64,000 nucleotides of DNA, from the NCBI RefSeq assembly GCF_024521635.1, contig NW_026250403.1, forward strand, positions 868,001-932,000, in the 5' to 3' direction. Within the stretch, counting starts at the first letter, position 1; the number at the start of each line of letters is the position of its first letter. The notes under the pieces were generated by a model. That model saw only the letters and a program-made list of their open reading frames with translations. It was not told where the DNA came from and did not search any database. The stretch is from Tricharina praecox. Taxonomy: Eukaryota. Below, piece by piece: positions 2,899-30,689 of this stretch. Made by a program: the position numbers and the translations under genes.

Positions 2899-5564
2899 AT
2901 GGAAAATCGATTACATCTGAGCACGGATATCGTTGAAGACGAGTATCGCAGGCACTCGTTCGCTTCGTCCGTAGTCCCGCAGCGAGGTTCCGTCGCGTTT
3001 ACAACCCGCGATTTCACTTCGCCTGCCATTAGCATACAGGAGGCCGACAATGTATTCGACACACCGCCCGTCTCGCCAACTGTCGTCGGGCGGGACGACG
3101 TTTTCGCGACTCCGACAAATTCTCAACCCAGTTCCGCCAACGTTTCGCTCGTCGACTTGAGCGACTTTTCCACCCGTACACCGTCCGAAGTACCTCGAAG
3201 TTCGATATCGTCCGAGCCGAGGTCTCTCTCGTCTATAACAATAGCGGATGGAGGGTGGTCTTATGGGTTTGGGGGACATCGTCGGTCGGTGTCGTTATCG
3301 CGATCAATAACGCCCTCTTTGTCAGTCACAAGCGGAGTGAGCGGGTTACATCGGTCCAACACCGCGACTTCACACGGAACAAGTAATTCTTCAACTCTCT
3401 ATTCGATACCGTCAAATATTTCGGGGATATCGTCAAATATTTCGGGGATATCGTCGCCGCCTAGTCCAAGGCAAGTGGTGGCGCCGGTCAGGCCTCACTT
3501 CAATTATGGCGGCCACCAGCAGACTCTGTCCATCAACGGCTCGGAATTAGACGAATCGGATCCGTTTGGGGATGGGTTTGAGATACCGGTCGGCGATGGA
3601 TTCCGGCCACACATGCACAATCGGGTCCACATTATTAGTCAACGGCCTCCAACTTCATCGGCTGTCAGCCACAACGGTAGTTTTGGCAGCCTACCACCCC
3701 CTTACACGGAATACACGCTTCACACCAGATCACCGAAGCCGGATGACGGCGAGATTGATCTTGGTGTGGCCGTAAGACCTGTTTCGACAAATTCGGACTC
3801 CGGCATATCCATGGGTGACGGGGACGTTCGGCGAAGGAGCAGAAGGAGTGCAGCTGTTGTGGCAGGGGCGGGGATAGGAGTGGCAAATATGCGGAACGAC
3901 GAAGGCGGTGAAGATTCTAGCGGTGCCACGAAAGAATGGCGCGAAAGACGGATTTTTGGGAGTCGAGCGTGGCTGATTATCCTTTCGGGTGTCGTTGCAT
4001 TATTGGTTGGAGTCGCTGTGGGATTGGGTGTTGGTCTGGGAATTGGGGTTGCAAAATCGAAGGCGGAGTGAGTGGCCCCATCAGAGTCGTTGCGGAGGAT
4101 TAATCTGACTATTGAAGTGCTGCTTCTGAATCTGGTACTTCAATGACTACAGCGACTAACGTTCGGCCATCGCCCGAAGAAACTAGTCCCCCTAAGTCTG
4201 ATCCAAACAACGTGTATCCCGACATTCCGACAGGCAAAAACTTGATATCACCGCTCGAACTCAAGGACTCCCTAGGGGGATGCAGCATCGCTAGTGGCAG
4301 TTCACAGTCACCGCAATATTTCAGTCAGGGATCGAATGGCCTCTGGTCTTGCAACATGCCGGAGCAGAAACCGTTGCTGTGGGATATCGACGAGTGGCCG
4401 ATGAAATTCGCCGACGCCGAGCTTAGCAAGCTTGGCACTGTCCCGGACACCATCGTGTGCGCGGAGTTCGACAATGCCAAATGGGGAGGGTATTTGATTT
4501 CGAGTCAGGAGGGTGAATTCAAGGAGGAGCAGAAGAATACCGTGTTCGTTTCACCCAGCGGTGAAAGCGTCCAGTACGCACCTGGAGGCGGTTTTAGGGA
4601 GGGGATGCAAGCGCCGGCGTTTTACAACCAGCCACTCGCTTTCATGAATATCACCTGGCTACCGGACGAATCGGTCAACAAGAAGAGGGATGCGGGTCCT
4701 ATCACGACGCTGTCATACAAGTTTGGAATGCTATACAACAAAACTGTCATCTTGAAGGAGACAACCATGATTGAGACATTCAATTCTGCAGGAACCAACC
4801 CGCAGCGCTACGGGAATGGAACCGAATTGGTGGCAGGGGATAAGGTGTGGATGTGCATGTGGGAAAAGACGCTTCTCGAGGTGGAATTGATGGTCGACGA
4901 AGCCTCGTTAGCAGCAGAAAAAGTACCCACGAGGCACGCTCTAGGGAGTGTCGACGACGAAGAGGACGATACCTACAACAGCGGCAGCTTAACGACAACC
5001 ATCACTGTTAGTGATGTTATAACCGCATTGTCGACAACCGAGTCATCATCTTCTTCTTCATCTTCATCTTCATCTTCTCCATTCCCCTTTGAGCATGGGC
5101 CACACCCCCCTGGGGCGCCACATCACGGGAGACCACCTCCGCCACCACCTCCGCCACCAACACCAACACCAACACCCACGCCTATCGGCTTTGCAGACTT
5201 CGATTTTATCGAGCGTCTTGTTAAGCGTGGTGGTGCTACCGGCAAACCTCGTCGATACTCGCGGAGAGTGATAATCAAGGAGTATCGGCCCACGCAGGAC
5301 CGATTACGGAGGGTGTTGGGGATCGACAAGACGGACAGGGACGCCGAAGGCAGATCGATACCGGGTGCCGTGCACTGCCGCAAGATGATCGTGCAGACGG
5401 ACCGCGGACTTCGCGAGTACAGCTCCGATAACGAGGTCGTCAAGGTCACGATGCAGGAATTCGACACGAATTCGAAGCTGAAAAGAAGGACCGACGAAGT
5501 TACCGATACCGATACCGATGATGATGCCGATAACGACGGTTGTAAGTGTAGATGGGAGTCATAG
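2899..5564 (+). CDS. Single-pass (type II) membrane protein with Ser-rich cytoplasmic N-terminus and Cys-containing extracellular domain (DUF7820-like); exons 2899-4067, 4118-5564
   Basis: GTGAGT...CTGAC...AAG intron 4068-4117 joins ORFs 2881-4071 and 4143-5564 in frame. Hydrophobic segment WLIILSGVVALLVGVAVGLGVGLGIGV, PPPY motif, W-x-C motifs (WSCNM, VWMCMWEKTLLE) and C-terminal CKCRW. The DUF assignment is from memory of similar fungal proteins. Confidence 0.8.
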
Positions 5565-7419: not shown

Positions 7420-8963
7420 CTACAACTCCTCCTCCTCCATGGCAACCAGAGGTGCGCCCAACAATCCTCCGAAGCCGTGGCCTCCTCTCTCCGGTGGTCC
7501 GCCGAAGTTCAGCCCGCGGGTCGGGGCGGTAGGACTCTTGACATCGCTGTCCCCGCTGCCCTTCCTCTTCTTGGCGGGAGTCTCGGGCTCCTTGTCGGGA
7601 AGACGTCCGGGCGTGAAAGCCGTAGGACTGAAAATGCTTGGGATCGTGTCGGTGGGTTGTGCCGGGGGTGTCTCGGGACCGTCCGACTTGAGCGACGTGA
7701 TCGAGTGGGACCTCTTGAGCTTGACACGGCTAATCTGTGCCGCCAGCTGGTCCTCCATCCGCACTTCCTCCTCGGTCTTCATGTGTTCCCTCGCCATATC
7801 CCGAGGATCACGGTTGAGTTCGTCTCCCAACAAGGGATCGTCGTCCTCGCTGAAGCCGTTGAGACGCTTGCCGTTGGACTTATTCTTGGTGGGCTGTGGG
7901 AGCGAATCTCGGAAATCGCCGAAGCTGTTGCGGCCCTTGTAAATGTCATCCCCCTTGGGAATGAGTTCGCCGGTTGTCGATCCGAGGAGCGACGAGAAGT
8001 CGGCTTGCTTGGGCTTGGCCGGGGTGTTCTGTGTTGAGCTTGCTCGAGCGGGGAGAGCCGGCGGCTTGATCAGCCCGATCTTCTTGAGCTGGTGCTCGGA
8101 TCGGTAAAAAAAGATGAAGCTCGCGAAAACAACACCGTCGGCATCGAGGTGGCTGACGGATTGGGTGGAAACGGTCTCCTTATCTAGGGGCTTCGGGTCA
8201 GAGAAGCTGTAATTGTTAGTAGTGAAGGGAAAACATTTTAAGGCGGACACAAAAGAGATGAATACCCAGCAGTGTGGCTGACATCGACGTCGCCACCAAC
8301 ATCGCCCTCGGGATTGCCGCCGTTTGCCAGATGGTCCTTGAACATGTCTCCCCACACGCCCCTGCGGACCGGGCCCTCACATCTCACGCGGAACAGATCG
8401 ACACGGATCTGACCGGCTGACTCCTTCGGCTTAGAAGCTTTGGTCTCGCCCTCATCCTCCATGTTACCAACGACGGATGCTGGCATGCTATGCCTCCGAT
8501 TCAGGGCGGCAGCATCGGACTCGGACTTCTTCTCCTTGGAAATGTCTAAGGTGTTGAAGAAATTCTCGAGGCCGACTTCACGGAATACAAATTCTCGCTC
8601 AGCCAGTTGACCCTCGGCGACTTCGATCCATCTGCTCGAAATCCAGGTCTCGACCCCGCGCCGCAGAAGAGTAGCAGTTTCCTCCTTGCTCTTGCCGTCG
8701 AAATAGACGTAGGCAGCCAATGACTCCCGGTCGTCTCCTTTGACCTTGGGCTCGTAGCTATCCAAGATGGTGATGGAGACGGCGAACGGGCAGTTGGTTA
8801 TTGCAGGGATATACGAAGTAATTTTCGGGGTATGACGGAGCTTGTAGGTACCGTGCTCGGAGACAGCGCCGTGCTGGACGTGGGCCCAGTTGAAGTTCTC
8901 GACATCGGTGGGCGGATCCTTGGGGCAGTGGATCTCGACAGTAACACCTTTAAACGTCGGCAT
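7420..8963 (-). CDS. Conserved fungal hypothetical protein (DUF7918-like); exons 8963-8266, 8206-7420
   Basis: Minus-strand intron 8265-8207 (GTATTC...CTAAC...CAG) fuses ORFs 8238-8963 and 7420-8355 (TAG-FSDPKP). Motifs ITSYI...FAVSI, LAAYVYFDG, GQIRVDLFR and FIFFYRS..L.KIGLI. Confidence 0.8.
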
Positions 8964-9088
8964 AGTTGGGTAGGTGGAGATATGGTGGTTCTCGGAGGGG
9001 GTTGTAGTGGACGGAAGAGGGAGAAGCTTGGTCGTGGAGGATGACTATGGGATTGGAAGATACTGTGTGAGCAGGTAGCGGCTTTGAG

Positions 9089-21471: not shown

Positions 21472-24400
21472 TAACAAGTAAAGCTGACATTCATGCAGCC
21501 AATCACAGCCGCGAATTTTAGATGTCACGTTTCAAACCCTTCCGAGTTTTCACAGGATGGTCTAGTCTACTATATTCTATAGGAGCTCTAGAGTAGTTAC
21601 CGTAGTCTAACTGCGGAGATATGGCATCAATACTGTCAGTACTCAGAATACGGGGTTTTGATGCCATGATAGACAAGAAGATTAATGCTCAAATTCAGCA
21701 CGCTCCCATGGGCCGGCCACGCATTTACTCAATAAATACACCCTCCTTCCGAGCAACAGTAGGCTACTCTACCGAAAAGCAAGCCAGCATAACCACTACC
21801 TATGGGACATAGCAACACCGCAGAAAAGGCATTCATATCGACACCGGTATGTAGAGCAAGGCTCAGTATCCAGGGCTCTAATATAGACGTTACCACCCAC
21901 AGCCTACTCTAGAGTTGCCTACGCTGGGTCGACAAGACTTTATGGAATACCTCATGCGGCGTGAGAGCTTTCGCCGCAGAACTCACATGATATCACTCGC
22001 TCACAAATCCGACTTCCGGGCTTTCCGGGCTGGAGTCGCTGGAAAATACCTGGGTGCACTATAGCATAGTACATGGGCTGTGAATATGCGAAATAAATTG
22101 ATGTTCTTTCGCCTTATCTTTCTTTTCCTCTCTCGCTGGGCTGGAAAACAGATGGTGCATAAGAACATGCGAAACTAGGTAAGCCATCTAAAAATGTTTT
22201 TGGTCTTGGAATACTCCAGGTATGTATAGTAAAGAGTGTATTTGATACCGTATTCTTACGTGGTTTTTGTGGACCACTTGGACCTTGGGTGCTCTATCTT
22301 TTCTTAGTGGTTCACCGGTCCATCCCTAGAACTTCCGAACGAGGGATCCTCTACCGGTAGTACCCGGGAACGACGTGAAGCTCCATCTGTAGAAAAGTTA
22401 CCATCCAGTCATATTTCAATCAATTGAGGTCGCTGTCAACGTTGTGAATTCGAGGCGCACCGATACCGGTAATACTGACAGGCGCCTGAGGCGCCTGTCT
22501 AGCCAGTAGTTCACATACACAATATCTGCAACCTGCAGCTATATAGTAATATATCAGCTCACGCCGTTGTTGCAATGCCGGAGACTCGGAACCACGTTGG
22601 AAACAATTGGTCAATGGCGGTCCGGGGAAGCAGCTCTTCTAGACATCTGCATGCCGAGTATATGTACTAGGAGCAGCCATCTGTTATCTGGGCAATTCAT
22701 GTGCCTACGGAGGCTAGTTGTATTCTGCAGATTAATCTTGAGCACTGTGAAATTCTTTTGAAATGTAGAGTAGAGTAGAATATAGCAGATTCGACGCAGG
22801 GCAATCAACACTTGCAGATGCCGCGTCTTCCTGTAGATAGATACCACCAGATACCTATGATATGTGCATTGTGCGGTCCGGATGGGTATTGAGTGGTAGT
22901 AGTCCAATCCTCGCAGATTACATACCTGCTCGCATGCAGACCGTCCTAACGGATTTATTGTAGAATCGAACGGCTGGCTTGCGTACGTACGATAGGTCTA
23001 GAGTGGAGTACCTAGGTTGGCCCAGGCCCTCAAGCTGGGATCTGGATTGCCCATTTGACGAAAACGATGTTTGGCGCAAGGCCCAAGTGTAGGTACTCCA
23101 CGCATGATGAGTGCGAGGCCGTTAGTTAGTTAGCGGCGATTTCGCATCGGAACGAGCCGAGCCTGCCGAGTTCAATCTACATGACAAAGGTTCGGCATCC
23201 GGAATTCTCCTCGGCAGTGCGGAGGCAAACATACTCCGTGGGTATGATGGGTACGGGGAATGCTTAATTTGTAGAGACAAAATTCGCCGATACAGGCTCC
23301 TGCCGCACGTCGATGCGGAGTTTATATGTGGGAAATACATTAGGTACCTAGGGGCTGCTTCGTCACGGCTTTTGAGTAGAGTGGACTTTTGAGCAGACTT
23401 TTGAGTAGAGTAGCTGTGGAGATCTTCGAAACGTGGAACGCAGCAAAGTTGCTGATCGGATGGAGCAGGCCTGGACGCGCAAGAGCGATGCCAAAATTGG
23501 TAATGCCATTATCCATATGCACCCGGTGCCGGCAGCACATCCGGAGTCCGGGGCTGGGAGTGTGGGGGACATGAAGATCTATGTAGAGTGGGTAGCTGCG
23601 CTTTTCCAATCCATCCCGAGTGGTGGCCTACCTAGCGGCATGGCTGCGAACGACTCCCGTGTCCCGAGCGTTGGCTGCGGTTGTTCGTATGTATGATGGC
23701 TGGGCCGGAGTAAACTTTAAAGCCGTGGCTAGGGCATGTTTGATTGACTTTTCCGTAGGCAGGAAGCCGCGGGATAGGTAGGTATCGTGCGCGATTAGGC
23801 ACACAATGATACCTATGGCTGCCAATGTTTGAGCTTCAGGCTTCCAGAATCCAGGCTCGTGCTGGGAGGAAGTTCTCGCCACCAACCGTCCCGTAAACTC
23901 GGCTGCATACTTCGTTAGTTAGCAGGTCGTCTTCGCAGCCAATAGAAATTAGTAACAGACCTCCAGAGTCCAGAGCGGTGACATCGTCTTCGCCCAAGTC
24001 CGGCCGATCGCAACCATCTCAACCGAAAAGTTAGATACACAGGAAGGACTTTTTTTTCACAGCATCGAACGGTGGGTAAGAAGCATGTAGAGTACGTACT
24101 TGCACTTTGCGCTTGTCTCTTCACACCCTCTTCGTCGCAAGTGTTGGAATCCCTTCACACCCTCTTCTGCGGAAGTATCGCTCGGCACCTTGGTATGATA
24201 CCTAGCACCGTATGATTCTATGAACATTCGAGTTTCGAGCTGGGAGGCAGTGAGACTCGAAAGCTCAAGAGGCGCGGCGCGGATATAGTAGGACATCCTC
24301 GATGCCTGACAGCCTTGCCCCGCCCCCATTACCAGAAGTTAGGGGTTGATCCGAGCGAACCAGTGGATTCTCGACTACTCTGGAGTCTAGCAGCTACTAA

Positions 24401-25260
24401 TAGCTCCAATTATAAACCGGTCCGTGTGTTTTTCGTGCCTGCCCGTCCGTCGTCCGCAGCATTCGTCGCCGCGGCCGGATCATGGCCCTCGGATTGTCGC
24501 ACAAACTTCAAGCCCACCCGCCTAGGAAATATATAAATCAGTCGATTGGGAACTCTATGCTCTTTCGCTCTGTCTCCGAGGCTTCTGCAAGATGTCATCA
24601 CCTGGCCATCACCTGGCCATCACCTCGAAGTTTTTTTTCATGATTTTCGGTCTTTCATGCGCGGTTTCAGGTGAGGCATATCTCCACGTTACACCGGAGG
24701 AATGTTCCACACAACACGCCCGTCGCCCGGATTCCTTCAGCATGCAAGGCATGGAAGTCCCCCCCTAGGAATATGCTGGACGCTAGATGGAGAGTGTGGG
24801 AATTCTCGGTTCCAGCGGTGCGGGTGTCAGTGGGCGCTCACCTCATCGCATGCTGGATGTGCATGTTTGCTTGTTTGCTAGTTACTACGGTAGTATTTAG
24901 TTATGCCCCACACGGAATCGAAGCGCCAAACAAATTGCCAACTTCCGGGAAGGGCCTGTGTTGGTGCTCGGAAACTCTTCCCCGGAGAAATCCGGTGGAC
25001 ACGGGAACTTGCTTTCGCTCTCGTATCACCGGGAAGGGAGTGGGTGGGTGAGGGAGAGTTTTATACATGGCCTGACCTGATAAGCAGAGGAGGATCCTCT
25101 TCGCCTAGGACACTCCTTGCTCGCTGTCTGCCATCGTCACCTCGACTCGATCCTGCTCTACTACATATACCTGCTGCTCTTCAGTCCGGCACGCTGAATC
25201 TCCCTTCAGGCCCCTCCACCCCACTAATCGGTCGGCTAGTCGCCAGCTACCTCCCCAGTC

Positions 25261-27405
25261 ATGGCGGAACCCCTACAGCAACCTGCATTACTAGGTGCAG
25301 AGCCAGTGGTACGTGCCTACAGGCCTTCCGCTCGCGTGGTGATGACGATATTTGGTGACAGACAAAGAACGGATACATCTGACATTTCGCATAGAAGTCA
25401 CCCTCTAGGTCGGCGACGCCGCTTAAAGGGACCTCCTCCCAGCGGCAGTATCAGTCCGGACGTTCACCTCAACAGAGACCTGCACGGATCGTACAACCAA
25501 ACACTACCACCATGCCACTCGGAGAATCAAGACTCAAGCCACCGACATCACCGATGTCTGCTCCACGCGTCGCCCCGCCAGTTCGCGTGCAAACGGAACC
25601 CTCCAAACCTGCCTCTGCGATGGCTACCATCAGCCCTGTACAGCGACAGAGAACCGCCGTCTTGCCGCCCACCTCACCGAGACCACTCCTCCGAGCTTCG
25701 TTCAAGGTTGGACCTACCCTAGATAGTCTCGTGACGGTTCGTCGATCCGATTCGGGCTCCGTTGTTGGTGGTTCCGGTGGTTCCGTCGTCGGGGGCTCAG
25801 TTGTTGGAGGTTAGTGAATCCGATCCCCTCGCGAATCAATACGGGTCACTAATGTTGGAAACTTTCTGCAGGCCCAAGATCGCGCCCAAAAACCAGCGCA
25901 TCTAAAGTCCTCGCGACTTCTCCCCTCGGCGCCAGGCCTGGATCGAATGGCTCTTCAGCACCATTCAATACTGGGAGCCAGTTGACAGTTCGCGTACCAA
26001 GTCATGGAGGAACTCCCGGTTCCAAGCTTGGATCCAGTCCCCCACTCCCCACCACGAGCCCTGTCTACTTTGCACCGCGAGCTTCACCGAACCCTGAAGC
26101 GAGGATGCCCTCTCCAGCACCTCAAAAGTTCTTCGCCCTTGGCGCTAACCCTGCGGCAAGCACCGTGGGTGCACGCCCAACAGGTGCACGCCCAACAGGT
26201 GTTTTGAAGCACTCTGCCAGTTTCGAATCCACCTCTGTACCGAAGCCGACGTCAGGAAACAAGAACATGGCCATCGCGTTTACCATGTCGTGGGACGCGG
26301 CCGGCGAGGTCACGGCCCGGTGTTTGCTGGACCCAGGTGCCTCGGTTGCCTTGTTATCCAAGACATTTGTGAAGGAACATTCCGTGCCGAAAATCAAACG
26401 AAATATTCACATCACGGTTTACGACTTGGAGAAGAGGGTTGTTCCGGATGCCGGTGGCGCTTACACGCAGCCGCTGGTTCTCCGGCACCAGGACCACTTT
26501 ACGAAAGAGACATTCGAAATCGCAGCGCTGGACGAGCGCATCGATGCCGTACTACCGCTCGAATGGATCGAAAAACACGAACTCGTTGGACTTCGCTCGG
26601 GCCAGGTGTACTTCGGTTCGACATTTTGCATGCAGAACTGCACCAAAAATAGGCTAGCACTACCGAAGGACTCCTCGGCAGCATCAACCGCCGAAAAGCC
26701 GTTATCATCAAAGTTTAAGAAGTCTACTCCTGTCCCTGTGAAATCCTCAATCCCATCGCCCAAGTCTCCAGCCCCAGGGAAGGCCAGAGCTATAACAGGC
26801 ACCAAGATCACCGCACCGTCTAAGCCAACAGCGCCTCAAAAGCCAGCTACCATACTGACGAAACCGCCCCCAAAGTCTCCTTTGCCCGGAAAGGCGGGGT
26901 TCTCCAAGCTCGTGATTCCGAGTGTTGCGAAAACAACCACAGCCGAACGCAAAATTTTGACTCCTAGGAAGTCATCTGCCACTATCAAGCCGACGAACAA
27001 GCCAATGGACACACAGCTGGCTAAACCGACTGGTCCAGCCCGTAAGCTGATATCTCCGAATTCCCTCAAGATTTCTACCATCAAAAACACCCCGAAGATG
27101 GATTTGCACAAGGCTCGGGATGCACCTGTGCCTGCTACTGAGATTCCTGGTATGCTACTATTTCGATTCCCCTCTGGCTTCCATGACTAATAAGTGCCAA
27201 AGATTTGATCCATGACGAGGATGGATACGACTCGACCGCCAGCTCTGAGTTTGAGGAGAACCCGGGGGTACCACTTACCCCCAACGGACACTCGGACAAA
27301 TCTCACCAAAACGAATCCCCTGATGTCGACCACGCCCACGAGAGTCCTTCTGGAGTGATTGGCAGTGAAGTGAGGGGAGTCGAAGTTGTCGGTGAAATCC
27401 AATGA
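25261..27405 (+). CDS. 647-aa Pro/Ser/Lys-rich protein with an internal retroviral-type (Ty3/Gypsy) aspartic protease domain; exons 25261-25308, 25395-25809, 25872-27149, 27203-27405
   Basis: Three canonical introns with branch sites join four ORFs into one 1944-nt frame. The domain at about 26267-26650 reads ARCLLDPGASVALLSKTFV...DAVLPLEWIEKH...C-x3-C. Confidence 0.82.
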
Positions 27406-28254
27406 CCAGCAACTTGCCCGGTGGGGCCATGCAAGAGCTAGTCAGGACTCAGTAGCTAAAAGGAGGGTTGACGTTTACGGTGGGACAGGACATGGTAAAG
27501 CTCACTGTAATGGCAGGTATTTTTTTTTCTCTTCGTTTGGTATGGGCATTTCTAGGTGTTATCGTATGGGCTTTGACCACTTATTTCTCTTCTCCGGTGC
27601 GATGCTTTTTTTTTTATCCTTTTCCTTCGTGTCTGTATCAATATGTGGTGAGAATAGCTGTACGATTATCTCTACTCAAAGAGGGGCCACTGAACAGTGG
27701 TCCGCTGGATTCCTGGGCGAAATACATTCATTTGGACTTGCATGCATTTCGGCATGTCAAACTTCTCAGGACTCCTCTCCAGTGTACACAAAGATCCAAA
27801 CTGTATTCTTTATCTCCCCTAATAGCTATCAATATCATTATTACTCTTTGATAAGGCTTGCCATAATGAATATTCCTTTCGTGGGAGTCCATAGTAGTGA
27901 GTGGAATCAAATTTCACTCAGTCAACACTTGCATGTCTCTATTGAGGTTACTTACCTCTATACGTACATCTTTGCAGTAGCTTGACAGCCTTGTGTCGCC
28001 GAGCAGCTTTATTCCCATCTCTTAGCAGTCTTGCCGTCAATATCCCAGAATTCGAGACTTGACCCTCCCATAGTCCACGGCTACCGAACGCTGCAGCACT
28101 ACTGACATTCGCAACAAATCCCTTCTCATTGAACGCTTGATATACCTACTTGATATTGCATTGAAATACATACTTCAAGGGGCCGGCGAATACTTCCGAG
28201 TGAGTCAACCAGTGTCACCGCTGCGCCGAGTATCGATCACACCCCACTTCACAC

Positions 28255-30689
28255 ATGGCTCGGACAGTGGCGGAGCACCATGTCGACGAGCAACCATTAT
28301 CCACGGCGACATCTTCCGCACTGGAAGACTGCACTGTCATTCCGCCCGAGCCGATACCGGACGACGGCAGCGGGGACGACACTCGGGATCCGTTCGGGTT
28401 TCGGGGGGTTGCAGCGGACCCCGAGCTTATCCGGCAAGCCGAGGGGGTAGTGCTGCGACGGAAGGGCTGGGGCAAGCTGGCGCGGCTGTGTCCCAACTGC
28501 AGGTGGCTGTTCACGGCGGCCGATAAGGTCCTGCGACTGCTGTCGGCGAAACCGAAGGTTATTGGGTGGAATTCCGAGGAGAATCGGGTCCCGGCGACGG
28601 CGCAGAAGGAGGAGTTTGGAGTTAGGCAGGCCGCGGGCATGACGAAGAGTTGGACGAGGCCGGAGCTTGTTGCTTGTTATGTTCTGTTCGTTCCTACCCC
28701 CAGGTCTCCGATCCGAAGAGCTCCTAAAGAGTTGCTGAACATTGTGCTCTTAGGCTGGTACTCCTCTGCAACCTCCTCCACCTCTACTCCGAGCTCTACC
28801 CTGGTGCCGTGGAAAACGCTCTGGCACATTATTCCGTTCAGCGGAAAATTTCGAGTTGGCAGCTGGAGATTCCCTGGCTCTTCCTCGACACCATCGGAAT
28901 CATAGCTTTAGTAACCTGTGGGGATCTCCACCGTTCTTTCTGGGGTTGTTTCTAATCAGCGAAAGTTGTCAAGATTGCGAATTCCTATTCTCGGCCGTGG
29001 GGTCTGTTCCTAGGGTCCCTTCTCTGCATCTCGGGTATGAGTGTGGCTGTCGTCAGTGAATGCGTCACTGTCTACACTCTGGGTATGGGACTGGTGGAGC
29101 TGGGAAAGAACGGCCTCTTTGCTGTGGCCACCGTCGTGATTGCCGATAGCAGTGACCTGGTCTGGAGAATGTTCTTTATTTGGTGCGGTAGTTGCACGAT
29201 ACCCCTGTGGGCGTGGTCGGGACTTTGGATTCGGCTTCAACTCTCTTCGTGGGGGCATGACGTCTCGGAAAACTGGTGAGCAGGATCATAAGTACGTGGT
29301 ATGCACCTTACTAACTTCCATTTGGGCGAAACGCTACCTGGGTCTTTCTTGGATGCGTCACGGCGTTTACAATTCCTAATACCATGGCCTTCTATATCTT
29401 CATACGGCGAGCAGCAAACAAAGGATACATCCCAGTATCGCACAGACATTACGAGTGGAACATCTTCAATCCTCGCAACTTCCTGAAGAACCTAGATCTG
29501 TTTGGCGCACGGAACGACTTTTTGGGCCTGCTGACATTCAACGTTGCACTTGCGGCACTCTCATTAGCACTCGTCACACCTCCTACAGCTAATTTCGTGA
29601 CGTGGAGGAACTGGTTTTTTATTGTTGGCCTAGTCGTTTTGTTTCTTTTCGTCGTGTGGGAGCTCTACTTGGGTGGTCAATTCCTGGGGAGACGTCGAGA
29701 GGATATTGGAAGCATTGACGGCTCAGAAACCCTTAGCAGTAGTCTTTCGATTCCATCTGATCTAGTGCTGGCACCGAATCCATATACAGCTCCCGGTGAA
29801 GACTTGGATGCGCTGGCCGGCCAGACAGCAGCCCGCTTGAGAGGAAGATACGAGCCCGAGTCCTTCCGGAAACGCTGTCATGCTCTGATACCGGAGTCGC
29901 TTGTCCGCAATCAGCAGGCTATCGTGTGTACGCTTTGCTTGTCGTTGGAGTCGTTCGCGTACACCTCGAGCTGCTGGGTCGTCTTCCGCGTCCCGGTCTC
30001 CGGCGTGGAAACGGAATGGCAATACTGGTTTTACTGTGTCCGTCCTCCTATATTCATCCGTTGTAGCTACTAACACGTGTCACAGGTGCATATTACTTGC
30101 ACGGTTGCTGCGAGCTTGATCGTGTCGTTATTTGTTCCGTACCTGCGGCAGCTGAAGGCCTTCGTCGTCGCCGGCCTCTTGCTCGAGCTCATCTCGTCGT
30201 TAGTAGGTTGCCAGTCAGTTTCTCCCAATACCTGGTGAAAAGGTTCGCTGACGCATCAAGACCATGTTGGGAGTGTGCCTACGGGGCAGCCACGTATCGG
30301 ACAGTATTTACGTTCCACTGGTCCTGCTCGGAGTGGGCAACGGCATGGTCGACATCCCGCTGCTGATCACCGCGCACGCGAGCTGCTCGAGACGCTCAGA
30401 TGTCGCTATCGCCACCGGCCTCATGATGACGGCCAAAGGCATGGCGATGCAGATGGGTAGGGCAGTGTGCAATGCCTTGATGGGCTACTACGATCCGCTG
30501 GAGTCTTTCTCGGTCATGTATCCCGCCGCCGAGTCTACCCTGGATGGAGTGGAGCGCGTTGGGCTTGTCTGGTGGATGTTGATCGTGGCAGGTATCGTAC
30601 TGCAAGCAGTGGGCGTTGCGGCGGCGACCGTCTTGCTACGGAACGTAAGCTCCATAGTGCACCGATGGGATGGGAAGAACGAACACTGA
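28255..30689 (+). CDS. Divergent MFS transporter, siderochrome-iron transporter (SIT/ARN/MirB)-like, several introns (internal boundaries not fully resolved)
   Basis: FGVRQAAGMTKSWTRPELVACY (typical SIT N-terminal motif), KIANSYSRPWG, VVIADSSDLVWR, LDLFG, DVAIATGLMM and many hydrophobic segments spread over consecutive ORFs. Confidence 0.72.

Follow-up and report, generated by a model that had tools for sequence, protein, structure and literature searches.

A spliced fungal gene with a retropepsin-fold domain of probable Ty3/Gypsy origin and proline in the active-site triplet

Host genes derived from retroelement proteases are known in animals, namely the Ddi1-like genes, ASPRV1, PEG10 and RTL1. 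ASPRV1 starts out as a precursor that carries flanking regions, and it processes itself, as described in the accessible part of PMC11402058. For fungi, the accessible text of a survey of co-opted long terminal repeat (LTR) retrotransposons gives three events, all of them gag genes of Ty1/Copia or Bel-Pao origin, and the word 'protease' does not occur in that text (PMC8321522). In this study we analysed a stretch of 64,000 nucleotides of Tricharina praecox (contig NW_026250403.1, positions 868,001 to 932,000, forward strand), which is called the window below and is numbered from its first letter. At 25261-27405 it contains a four-exon gene whose product carries one compact domain between long low-complexity arms, and which an earlier inspection of the letters (the sequence-only reading) had taken for a domesticated Ty3/Gypsy protease. 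The gene is almost certainly a fungal host gene that goes back to a single old exaptation of the protease of a Ty3/Gypsy chromovirus, with the protease alone surviving, and that is transcribed, spliced, syntenic and under purifying selection.

The relationship of the domain to retropepsins rests on HMMER matches to the proteases of transposable elements (TEs) and on the fold, because no Pfam model passes its cut-off. When 1.84 billion representative proteins were searched exhaustively by phmmer with the domain as query, 185 matches reached E<=1e-3, of which 56 had E<=1e-10, and the matches outside the window's own lineage were 26-42% identical. The TE proteases among them, which belong to fungal Ty3/Gypsy chromovirus polyproteins, reached E values down to 3e-23 at 33-42% identity. 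In P0016, P0091, P0014 and P0039 the homologous domain directly precedes RVT_1, and P0016 and P0091 additionally have RT_RNaseH. The protein P0166 of the P0091 cluster shows the order protease, reverse transcriptase (RT), RNase H, integrase, SH3_Tf2-1 and chromodomain, and is therefore a Ty3/Gypsy-group chromovirus. A gag-type zinc knuckle was read from the sequence upstream of the domain in P0128, where its Pfam match is weak, and the other partial matches inspected look TE-type. Host and TE proteases both have the catalytic Asp, the flap Gly, an L-P-x-x-W...H helix and a C-x3-C tail. The homology to Ty3/Gypsy proteases claimed by the sequence-only reading is thereby borne out, since the domain is homologous to proteases that precede RT and RNase H.

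The Pfam families that had been named as the ones to check (RVP_2, gag-asp_proteas and Asp_protease_2) did not return the domain above cut-off. None of the Pfam retropepsin models reached its gathering score, and only Asp_protease_2 appeared, whose 15.2 bits (E 0.037) fall short of the 24.3 required. The protease domains of the TE relatives are likewise sub-threshold in Pfam, and a TE protease clade that lies below these thresholds can conceal host genes. A phmmer search of the domain against the PDB sequences gave chance matches only, and a profile of 62 sequences gave eight PDB matches, all of retropepsin type and with Ddi1 as the best, none of which was significant (best E 0.063). A word-indexed protein search found only the window open reading frame (ORF) and two close orthologues, and with the Pyronema domain as query only that protein itself, so that the taxonomic breadth is under-sampled.

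The domain is confidently predicted to adopt a single-lobe retropepsin fold. The AlphaFold2 model built on the 62-sequence alignment had a predicted local distance difference test (pLDDT) score of 89.8 and a predicted template modelling (pTM) score of 0.82. The single-sequence model had a pLDDT of 32.9, and only the alignment-based model was used. With Foldseek, 29 PDB chains were matched at E<=1e-3, the top ones being Ddi1 RVP domains and the proteases of equine infectious anaemia virus (EIAV), human T-cell leukaemia virus type 1 (HTLV-1), xenotropic murine leukaemia virus-related virus (XMRV) and Rous sarcoma virus (RSV). VIA-align against 48,161 chains gave a Z of 10.3 to the Ddi1 RVP domain and of 8.7, 8.7, 8.6 and 8.2 to four retroviral proteases (RSV, EIAV, M-PMV, the Mason-Pfizer monkey virus, and XMRV). 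The 41 BFVD matches at E<=1e-3 had caulimovirid and retroviral proteases at the top, and all ten of the 10 best family-bearing matches in an ESM Atlas look-up were retropepsin families (RVP_2 and gag-asp_proteas clusters). The retropepsin fold that had been expected for this domain was thus recovered, with retropepsins at the top in Foldseek, VIA-align and BFVD. If the domain were unrelated to retropepsins and its motifs resembled theirs by chance, the lack of a Pfam match above cut-off and of a significant PDB sequence match would be accounted for, but not E values from 3e-23 to 1e-10 for domains placed ahead of RT in pol, nor the confident retropepsin fold, and we give this explanation next to no credence.

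The gene model is well defined. The four exons (Table 1) join into 1944 nt, that is 647 codons and a stop, and the start codon is the first in-frame ATG downstream of a stop at 25237-25239. The introns have the 5' ends GTACGT, GTTAGT and GTATGC (introns 1-3), branch-like boxes CTGAC or ACTAAT and 3' AG, a style that is typical of filamentous ascomycetes. Transcript contigs in the spliced form were found in four runs (X1-X4) from three studies. The X1 contig (2928 nt) and the X2 contig (2867 nt), which come from different studies, lack exactly 86, 62 and 53 nt with GT..AG borders. The soil metatranscriptomes X3 and X4, whose matches to the window have at least 99% identity, have intron 2 removed in both cases and intron 1 in X4. 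Taken together, the intron style, the genes nearby and these soil matches point to a filamentous ascomycete that occurs in soil. X3 and X4 are RNA on record, and X1 and X2 are RNA by software guess and not by record. Since the RNA status of X1 and X2 is a guess only, the removal of intron 3 rests on these two contigs together with P0156, an uninterrupted protein of 635 aa from an orthologous lineage, encoded on a contig of 2313 nt, that crosses the intron 3 junction. The exon and intron coordinates and the unbroken frame of 647 aa given by the sequence-only reading proved exact, and the junctions it had wished to see in RNA are present in transcript contigs that span exon 3 with the three introns removed at the predicted GT..AG borders.

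The X1 and X2 contigs extend about 368-369 nt upstream of 25000 and up to about 60 nt past 27700. Should this upstream part be collinear with the genome, the leader would be about 629 nt long (24632-25260) and contain 12 upstream ATGs, which would then hint at translational control.

Several lines of evidence place the gene among host genes and not within an element. Nine tblastn queries, consisting of TE pol or gag-pol proteins and domains, matched the window only at 26315-26695, and one high-scoring segment pair extended from the protease part to 27118. Pfam searches of 20 of the 41 window ORFs of at least 180 aa identified ordinary fungal genes only, with no gag, RT, RNase H or integrase, and no LTR-like direct repeats of at least 60 nt were found in 15000-38000. 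The tblastn, Pfam and repeat searches are hence all in line with the claim that gag, RT, RNase H, integrase and LTRs are missing nearby. The 64-kb window has a single copy of the gene, as has each of the three orthologous loci, and neither RT nor integrase sequence adjoins it; many near-identical copies beside such sequences, which would have spoken for an element, were thus not encountered.

The three orthologous loci (L001-L003) were found on metagenome contigs and encode relatives of 68-70% protein identity. L002 is almost the same as L003 in sequence, so that the loci stand for two further species-level lineages and not three. All three match the window collinearly on both sides of the gene, and the L003 contig of 112.7 kb is collinear with window positions 22592-30647, including upstream blocks and the downstream gene. 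In each of L001, L002 and L003 the start codon is present, the introns lie at the three positions with GT..AG borders and the frame is intact, its length being 642, 636 and 636 aa, respectively. The syntenic orthologues that had been sought as a check are accordingly at hand, with collinear flanks and shared introns.

The gene is under purifying selection, which is strongest in the protease domain. Ratios of nonsynonymous to synonymous substitution rates (dN/dS), calculated pairwise by the Nei-Gojobori method, were 0.067-0.091 for the domain, 0.18-0.23 for the N-terminal arm (N-arm), 0.30-0.34 for the C-terminal arm (C-arm), 0.22-0.38 for the acidic tail and 0.19-0.22 for the whole protein. 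The dS of the domain was 0.88-1.3, at which saturation may blur the exact ratios and leaves the conclusion unaffected. Neutral evolution or disabled orthologues would have counted against the proposal, and the orthologues are intact with a domain dN/dS of 0.07-0.09. The same data bear on the idea that the locus is a decaying retrotransposon fragment or a functionless TE exon that is transcribed by chance. That idea agrees with a domain that is TE-derived and lies below the Pfam thresholds. However, the frames are intact in three further loci at a dS of 0.6-1.3 and dN/dS is 0.07-0.34 in every region, and the introns and synteny are conserved and spliced transcripts occur in four runs of three studies; we therefore regard decay as highly improbable.

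Relatives of host type are also found at greater distance, and the host-type sampling amounts to four or five lineages. P0006, which begins after the active-site motif, shows 59% identity in the domain, and it shares the Lys/Pro/Ser/Thr arm as well as the motif of the acidic tail. P0028, a hypothetical protein of Pyronema omphalodes (Pezizomycetes), shows 36% identity (E 2e-25); its arms are disordered, its end is acidic, and close to the N-terminus it carries a WW domain at residues 54-83 (Pfam E 4e-9). In a quick tree of 106 rows, made up of P0006 and every match that had 95 or more aligned profile positions and omitting P0001-P0003, two repeat proteins (P0125, P0142) and 45 fragments of lesser length, the seven host-type rows formed one branch with a Shimodaira-Hasegawa-like approximate likelihood ratio test (SH-aLRT) value of 100. 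In a more careful tree of 74 rows, from which P0005 (identical to L003), 13 long-branch rows and rows of fewer than 110 residues were left out, the six host-type rows formed one branch (100/100, and in 200/200 bootstrap trees) nested among TE proteases. The branch of P0028 is long (1.56) and carries a long-branch risk; its common descent with the others is favoured independently by the architecture, the Pro after the Asp and the first strand A-[MI]-A-F-T-[MI]-S-W that it shares with them. The nearest TE rows (P0009, P0012, P0037, P0113 and P0100), most of which are D-S-G, join the host clade weakly (88/75).

These comparisons of sequences indicate that the gene dates back far enough for Pyronema to share it and that the host-type genes have a single origin. 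The sequence-only reading had spoken of a lineage-specific exaptation. The exaptation stands, with a lineage that is wider than one genus, since the clade includes Pyronema omphalodes. The phylogeny it had proposed places the host clade among the proteases of Gypsy pol, and by sequence the domain groups with Gypsy proteases and not with Ddi1.

The most conspicuous feature of the domain is its altered active site. The motif LLDPGA is present with its Asp codon at 26330-26332 (residue D308), and the S-x-x-F-V stretch, DAVLPLEWIEKH and the C-x3-C tail were all found in the domain as well, so that every motif listed earlier is there at the sequence level. D-P-G-A is shared by the window, L001, L003, P0004, P0005 and P0156, with the Pro codon CCA in the three loci for which DNA is available, and the Pyronema protein P0028 has D-P-S-A. 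The consensus of retropepsins is D-T/S-G-A, whose Thr/Ser is essential for dimer formation and stabilisation via the fireman's grip, as stated in the accessible text of PMC7072860. Compared with this canonical class, the window protein has the Asp, Gly and Ala, and Pro in the place of Thr/Ser. A single T-to-C change would convert a TCN Ser codon to Pro. Because the motif departs from the canonical class and the Pfam scores stay under their thresholds, we do not file the protein as a canonical A2 peptidase; by descent it is a member of the Ty3/Gypsy protease clade, and by fold a retropepsin.

The variation in the family gives a background for this change. Residues at the motif position are present in 127 of 151 aligned rows, 50 of them DTG and 27 DSG, and because these 77 of 127 rows are canonical, the source family is of the working retropepsin type. 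D-P-G occurs in six TE-like fragments (P0020, P0030, P0064, P0075, P0100 and P0107), D-C-G in nine rows, including the P0091 cluster with intact polyproteins of 1100-1190 aa, and D-W-G in five. Since D-P-G and D-C-G occur among TE-like rows, this clade is less strict than retroviruses about the second residue of the motif. The near-invariant positions of the family are all kept in the window protein, namely D308, G349, E370, L382, P383, W386, H390 and C407 (D34, G75, E96, L108, P109, W112, H116 and C133 in domain numbering), and the host-specific changes include W385 to E/Q (P0001 W111).

Proline has neither a hydroxyl nor a backbone NH to offer. The T26A mutant of the human immunodeficiency virus (HIV) protease is largely monomeric, and the iRhom pseudoproteases have a conserved Pro at the former active site. 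We know of no characterised active retropepsin with D-P-G, no search having been made for the point. Because the fixed Pro has neither the OH nor the backbone NH of the inter-subunit fireman's grip, we lean slightly towards attenuated or lost catalysis as opposed to an active protease. Judged from its sequence, the domain may be a dimerising or peptide-clamping module in which catalysis is lost or strongly weakened, a reading that we place just short of an even chance. As such a pseudo-protease, the domain would likely dimerise or clamp peptides with proteolysis lost or strongly attenuated, and it would bring together or regulate the basic arms rich in S/T-P. By their composition, the arms look like phospho-regulated regions that may bind nucleic acid or protein.

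Several observations weigh against a loss of catalysis. No host-type lineage whose sequence includes the position of the catalytic Asp has lost it, not even Pyronema at 36% identity. The flap Gly and the eight positions that are near-invariant in TEs are likewise all retained, a pattern to be expected of an active enzyme, and a dN/dS of 0.07 is as compatible with catalysis as with binding. The D-C-G relatives among the TEs have long intact pol ORFs, and together with the six D-P-G fragments they suggest that the Pro may not be disabling in this clade. According to the accessible text of PMC7072860, the active protease of feline foamy virus (FFV) has a non-Gly residue at the third motif position.

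The alternative, in which a D-P-G domain of the same origin is still an active homodimeric aspartic protease that cuts itself from the disordered precursor, in the manner of ASPRV1 and retroviral proteases, and/or cleaves cellular substrates, is in our judgement somewhat less probable than the pseudo-protease. The retention of Asp308, the flap Gly and the eight near-invariant positions in all host-type lineages, the very strong purifying selection on the domain and the variable second motif position of apparently intact TE relatives such as the D-C-G proteins all suit an active enzyme. It is further suited by the 23 residues before the fold, which are identical in three species, and by the start of the fold after hydrophobic-Ala (Met-Ala, or Tyr-Ala in Pyronema). 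Retropepsins cut at junctions of the hydrophobic-Ala type. A precedent for a domesticated protease that processes itself is ASPRV1, in the accessible part of PMC11402058. On the other hand, the Pro lacks the side-chain OH and the backbone NH of the grip, for which Thr/Ser is described as essential in the accessible text of PMC7072860, the Pyronema orthologue also loses the Gly of the motif (D-P-S), and conservation is absent from the stretch that follows the domain, which leaves no obvious C-terminal processing site.

The position of the Pro also admits a third role. The host D-P-G subunit could pair with the protease monomers of related Gypsy elements into a heterodimer that has only half of the fireman's grip and fails in Gag-Pol processing, so that retrotransposition is restricted, an explanation we consider unlikely. 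The elements needed to form a dimer are kept, the identity to fungal Gypsy proteases is 33-42%, and the sole consistently altered residue of the catalytic loop lies in the inter-subunit contact. Trans-dominant defective subunits are known from engineered HIV protease. However, the dN/dS of 0.07 does not point to an arms race, and this role leaves the long basic arms, which are conserved, and the acidic tail unaccounted for. An equally unlikely variant is an ancient fungal transposon-restriction factor, in which the basic arms would carry the protein to the RNA or particles of the element. Of these roles, the dimerising or peptide-clamping module with weakened or lost catalysis is the one we prefer, and in any case the fixed D-P-G offers a natural experiment, either on whether retropepsins can function when the fireman's grip is missing or on the reuse of the fold as a non-catalytic module.

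The domain sits in one intron-free stretch of exon 3, between arms that are Pro/Ser/Thr/Lys-rich and strongly basic. The net charge is +26 for the N-arm, which has 12 S/T-P sites, +23 for the C-arm, which has seven, and -13 for the acidic tail, and the low-complexity arms and acidic tail described by the sequence-only reading are reflected in this composition. Its statement that the UBL and UBA domains of Ddi1 are missing also agrees with our results, as no Pfam match to UBL, HDD or UBA was found in exons 2, 3 and 4 of the window gene or in the full-length orthologue P0156. No gag or zinc knuckle was detected upstream of the domain in a Pfam-level search, the N-arm being of low complexity. The 23-residue motif directly before the fold is, by its conservation, a candidate processing or regulatory site.

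The possibility that the C-arm is a relic of the linker between protease and RT plus the RT N-terminus was tried and rejected. BLASTP extends collinearly into it, yet the arms score no better than 1200 shuffles, and the best match of the C-arm to the RT hidden Markov model, found at the collinear distance, has -2.3 bits against up to 6.0 in shuffles. A conserved island in the C-arm at 27023-27094 aligns with the RT N-terminal motif of TE relatives and is either a pol relic or a chance resemblance.

Two further features of the protein were noted. His363, His390, Cys407 and Cys411 (26495-26497, 26576-26578, 26627-26629 and 26639-26641) are conserved at 87-98% across the TE protease clade, are kept in every host-type protein and lie in or near the C-terminal helical extension of the fold; by this pattern of residues, a metal might be bound by both His together with the C-x3-C pair. 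An exon with a WW domain like that of Pyronema was sought in the window and none was found. The window lineage has a conserved P-P-L-P stretch in the N-arm, whereas P0028 has the WW domain.

Table 1. Positions in the window of the gene, its exons and introns and the parts of its protein.
Feature	Position	Strand	Support or remark
mRNA, minimum extent	25000..27700	+	stretch fully covered by transcript contigs X1 and X2
Exon 1, coding part, residues 1-16	25261..25308	+	start codon 25261-25263; ATG context kept in L001-L003
Intron 1, 86 nt, GT..AG	25309..25394	+	absent from X1, X2 and X4 contigs; position kept in L001-L003
Exon 2, first part of basic disordered N-arm	25395..25809	+	Pfam: no domain
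Intron 2, 62 nt, GT..AG	25810..25871	+	absent from X1, X2, X3 and X4 contigs; kept in orthologues
Exon 3, remaining N-arm, retropepsin-like domain and Lys/Pro/Ser/Thr-rich C-arm	25872..27149	+	frame, transcripts
23-residue linear motif directly before the fold	26198..26266	+	identical in window, L001 and L003; AlphaFold2 confidence low here
Retropepsin-fold domain from Ty3/Gypsy protease, about residues 285-417	26261..26659	+	HMMER, AlphaFold2, fold matches, dN/dS
Active-site triplet D308-P309-G310, GAC CCA GGT; relatives D-T/S-G	26330..26338	+	alignment
Basic disordered C-arm	26660..27149	+	net +23; 16% Lys, 17% Pro; dN/dS 0.30-0.34
Intron 3, 53 nt, GT..AG	27150..27202	+	absent from X1 and X2 contigs; kept in orthologues; P0156 reads through junction
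Exon 4, acidic tail, motif D-x-D-G/E-Y-D-S...S-S-E-F-E-E conserved	27203..27405	+	stop 27403-27405

The neighbours identified by Pfam in the window include Vps53, GALT, aldehyde dehydrogenase, aldo-keto reductase and a LanC-like protein. The downstream neighbour at 28204-30647 has 76% nucleotide identity in L003 and L002, and its large ORFs are without a Pfam match. ORFs at 4116-5564 and 7420-9044 match fungal domains whose function is not known, namely DUF7820 and, on two adjacent reverse-strand ORFs, DUF7918.

Among described systems, the proteases of fungal Ty3/Gypsy chromoviruses (P0016, P0009, P0012 and P0014, with P0166 for the full order) are direct homologues of the window domain at 33-42% identity. 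The window gene differs from these elements in that gag, RT, RNase H, integrase and LTRs are missing, and in that it has three spliceosomal introns, basic disordered arms, an acidic tail and Pro after the Asp. The best structural match of the domain is the RVP domain of Ddi1/DDI2 (Foldseek 8.7e-6; Z 10.3, root mean square deviation 2.8 over 106 residues). However, the identity to Ddi1 is only 11-15%, the window protein is without UBL, HDD and UBA, and it has D-P-G where the Ddi proteins carry D-S/T-G-A, as given in the accessible text of PMC7072860.

ASPRV1 (SASPase) and PEG10/RTL1 are, like the window gene, host genes domesticated from Metaviridae-like elements in which the protease is retained. 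These vertebrate genes keep a Gag/capsid-like domain and the canonical motif. In contrast to ASPRV1 and PEG10, the window gene is fungal, keeps only the protease of the element, with no gag-like part detected, has D-P-G and stems from an independent domestication. No published description of a fungal domesticated Gypsy protease was found in the full-text literature, in which subscription journals and supplements are not searchable. The genes in the accessible text of the fungal survey resemble the window gene as co-options of fungal LTR retrotransposons that are single-copy and syntenic and are recognised by the same criteria (PMC8321522). They differ in being gag genes of Ty1/Copia and Bel-Pao (PMC8321522), whereas the window gene is a Ty3/Gypsy protease. 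Set beside the animal genes and these fungal gag genes, the window gene would be a rare fungal case in which the protease by itself was domesticated independently and has an altered catalytic loop.

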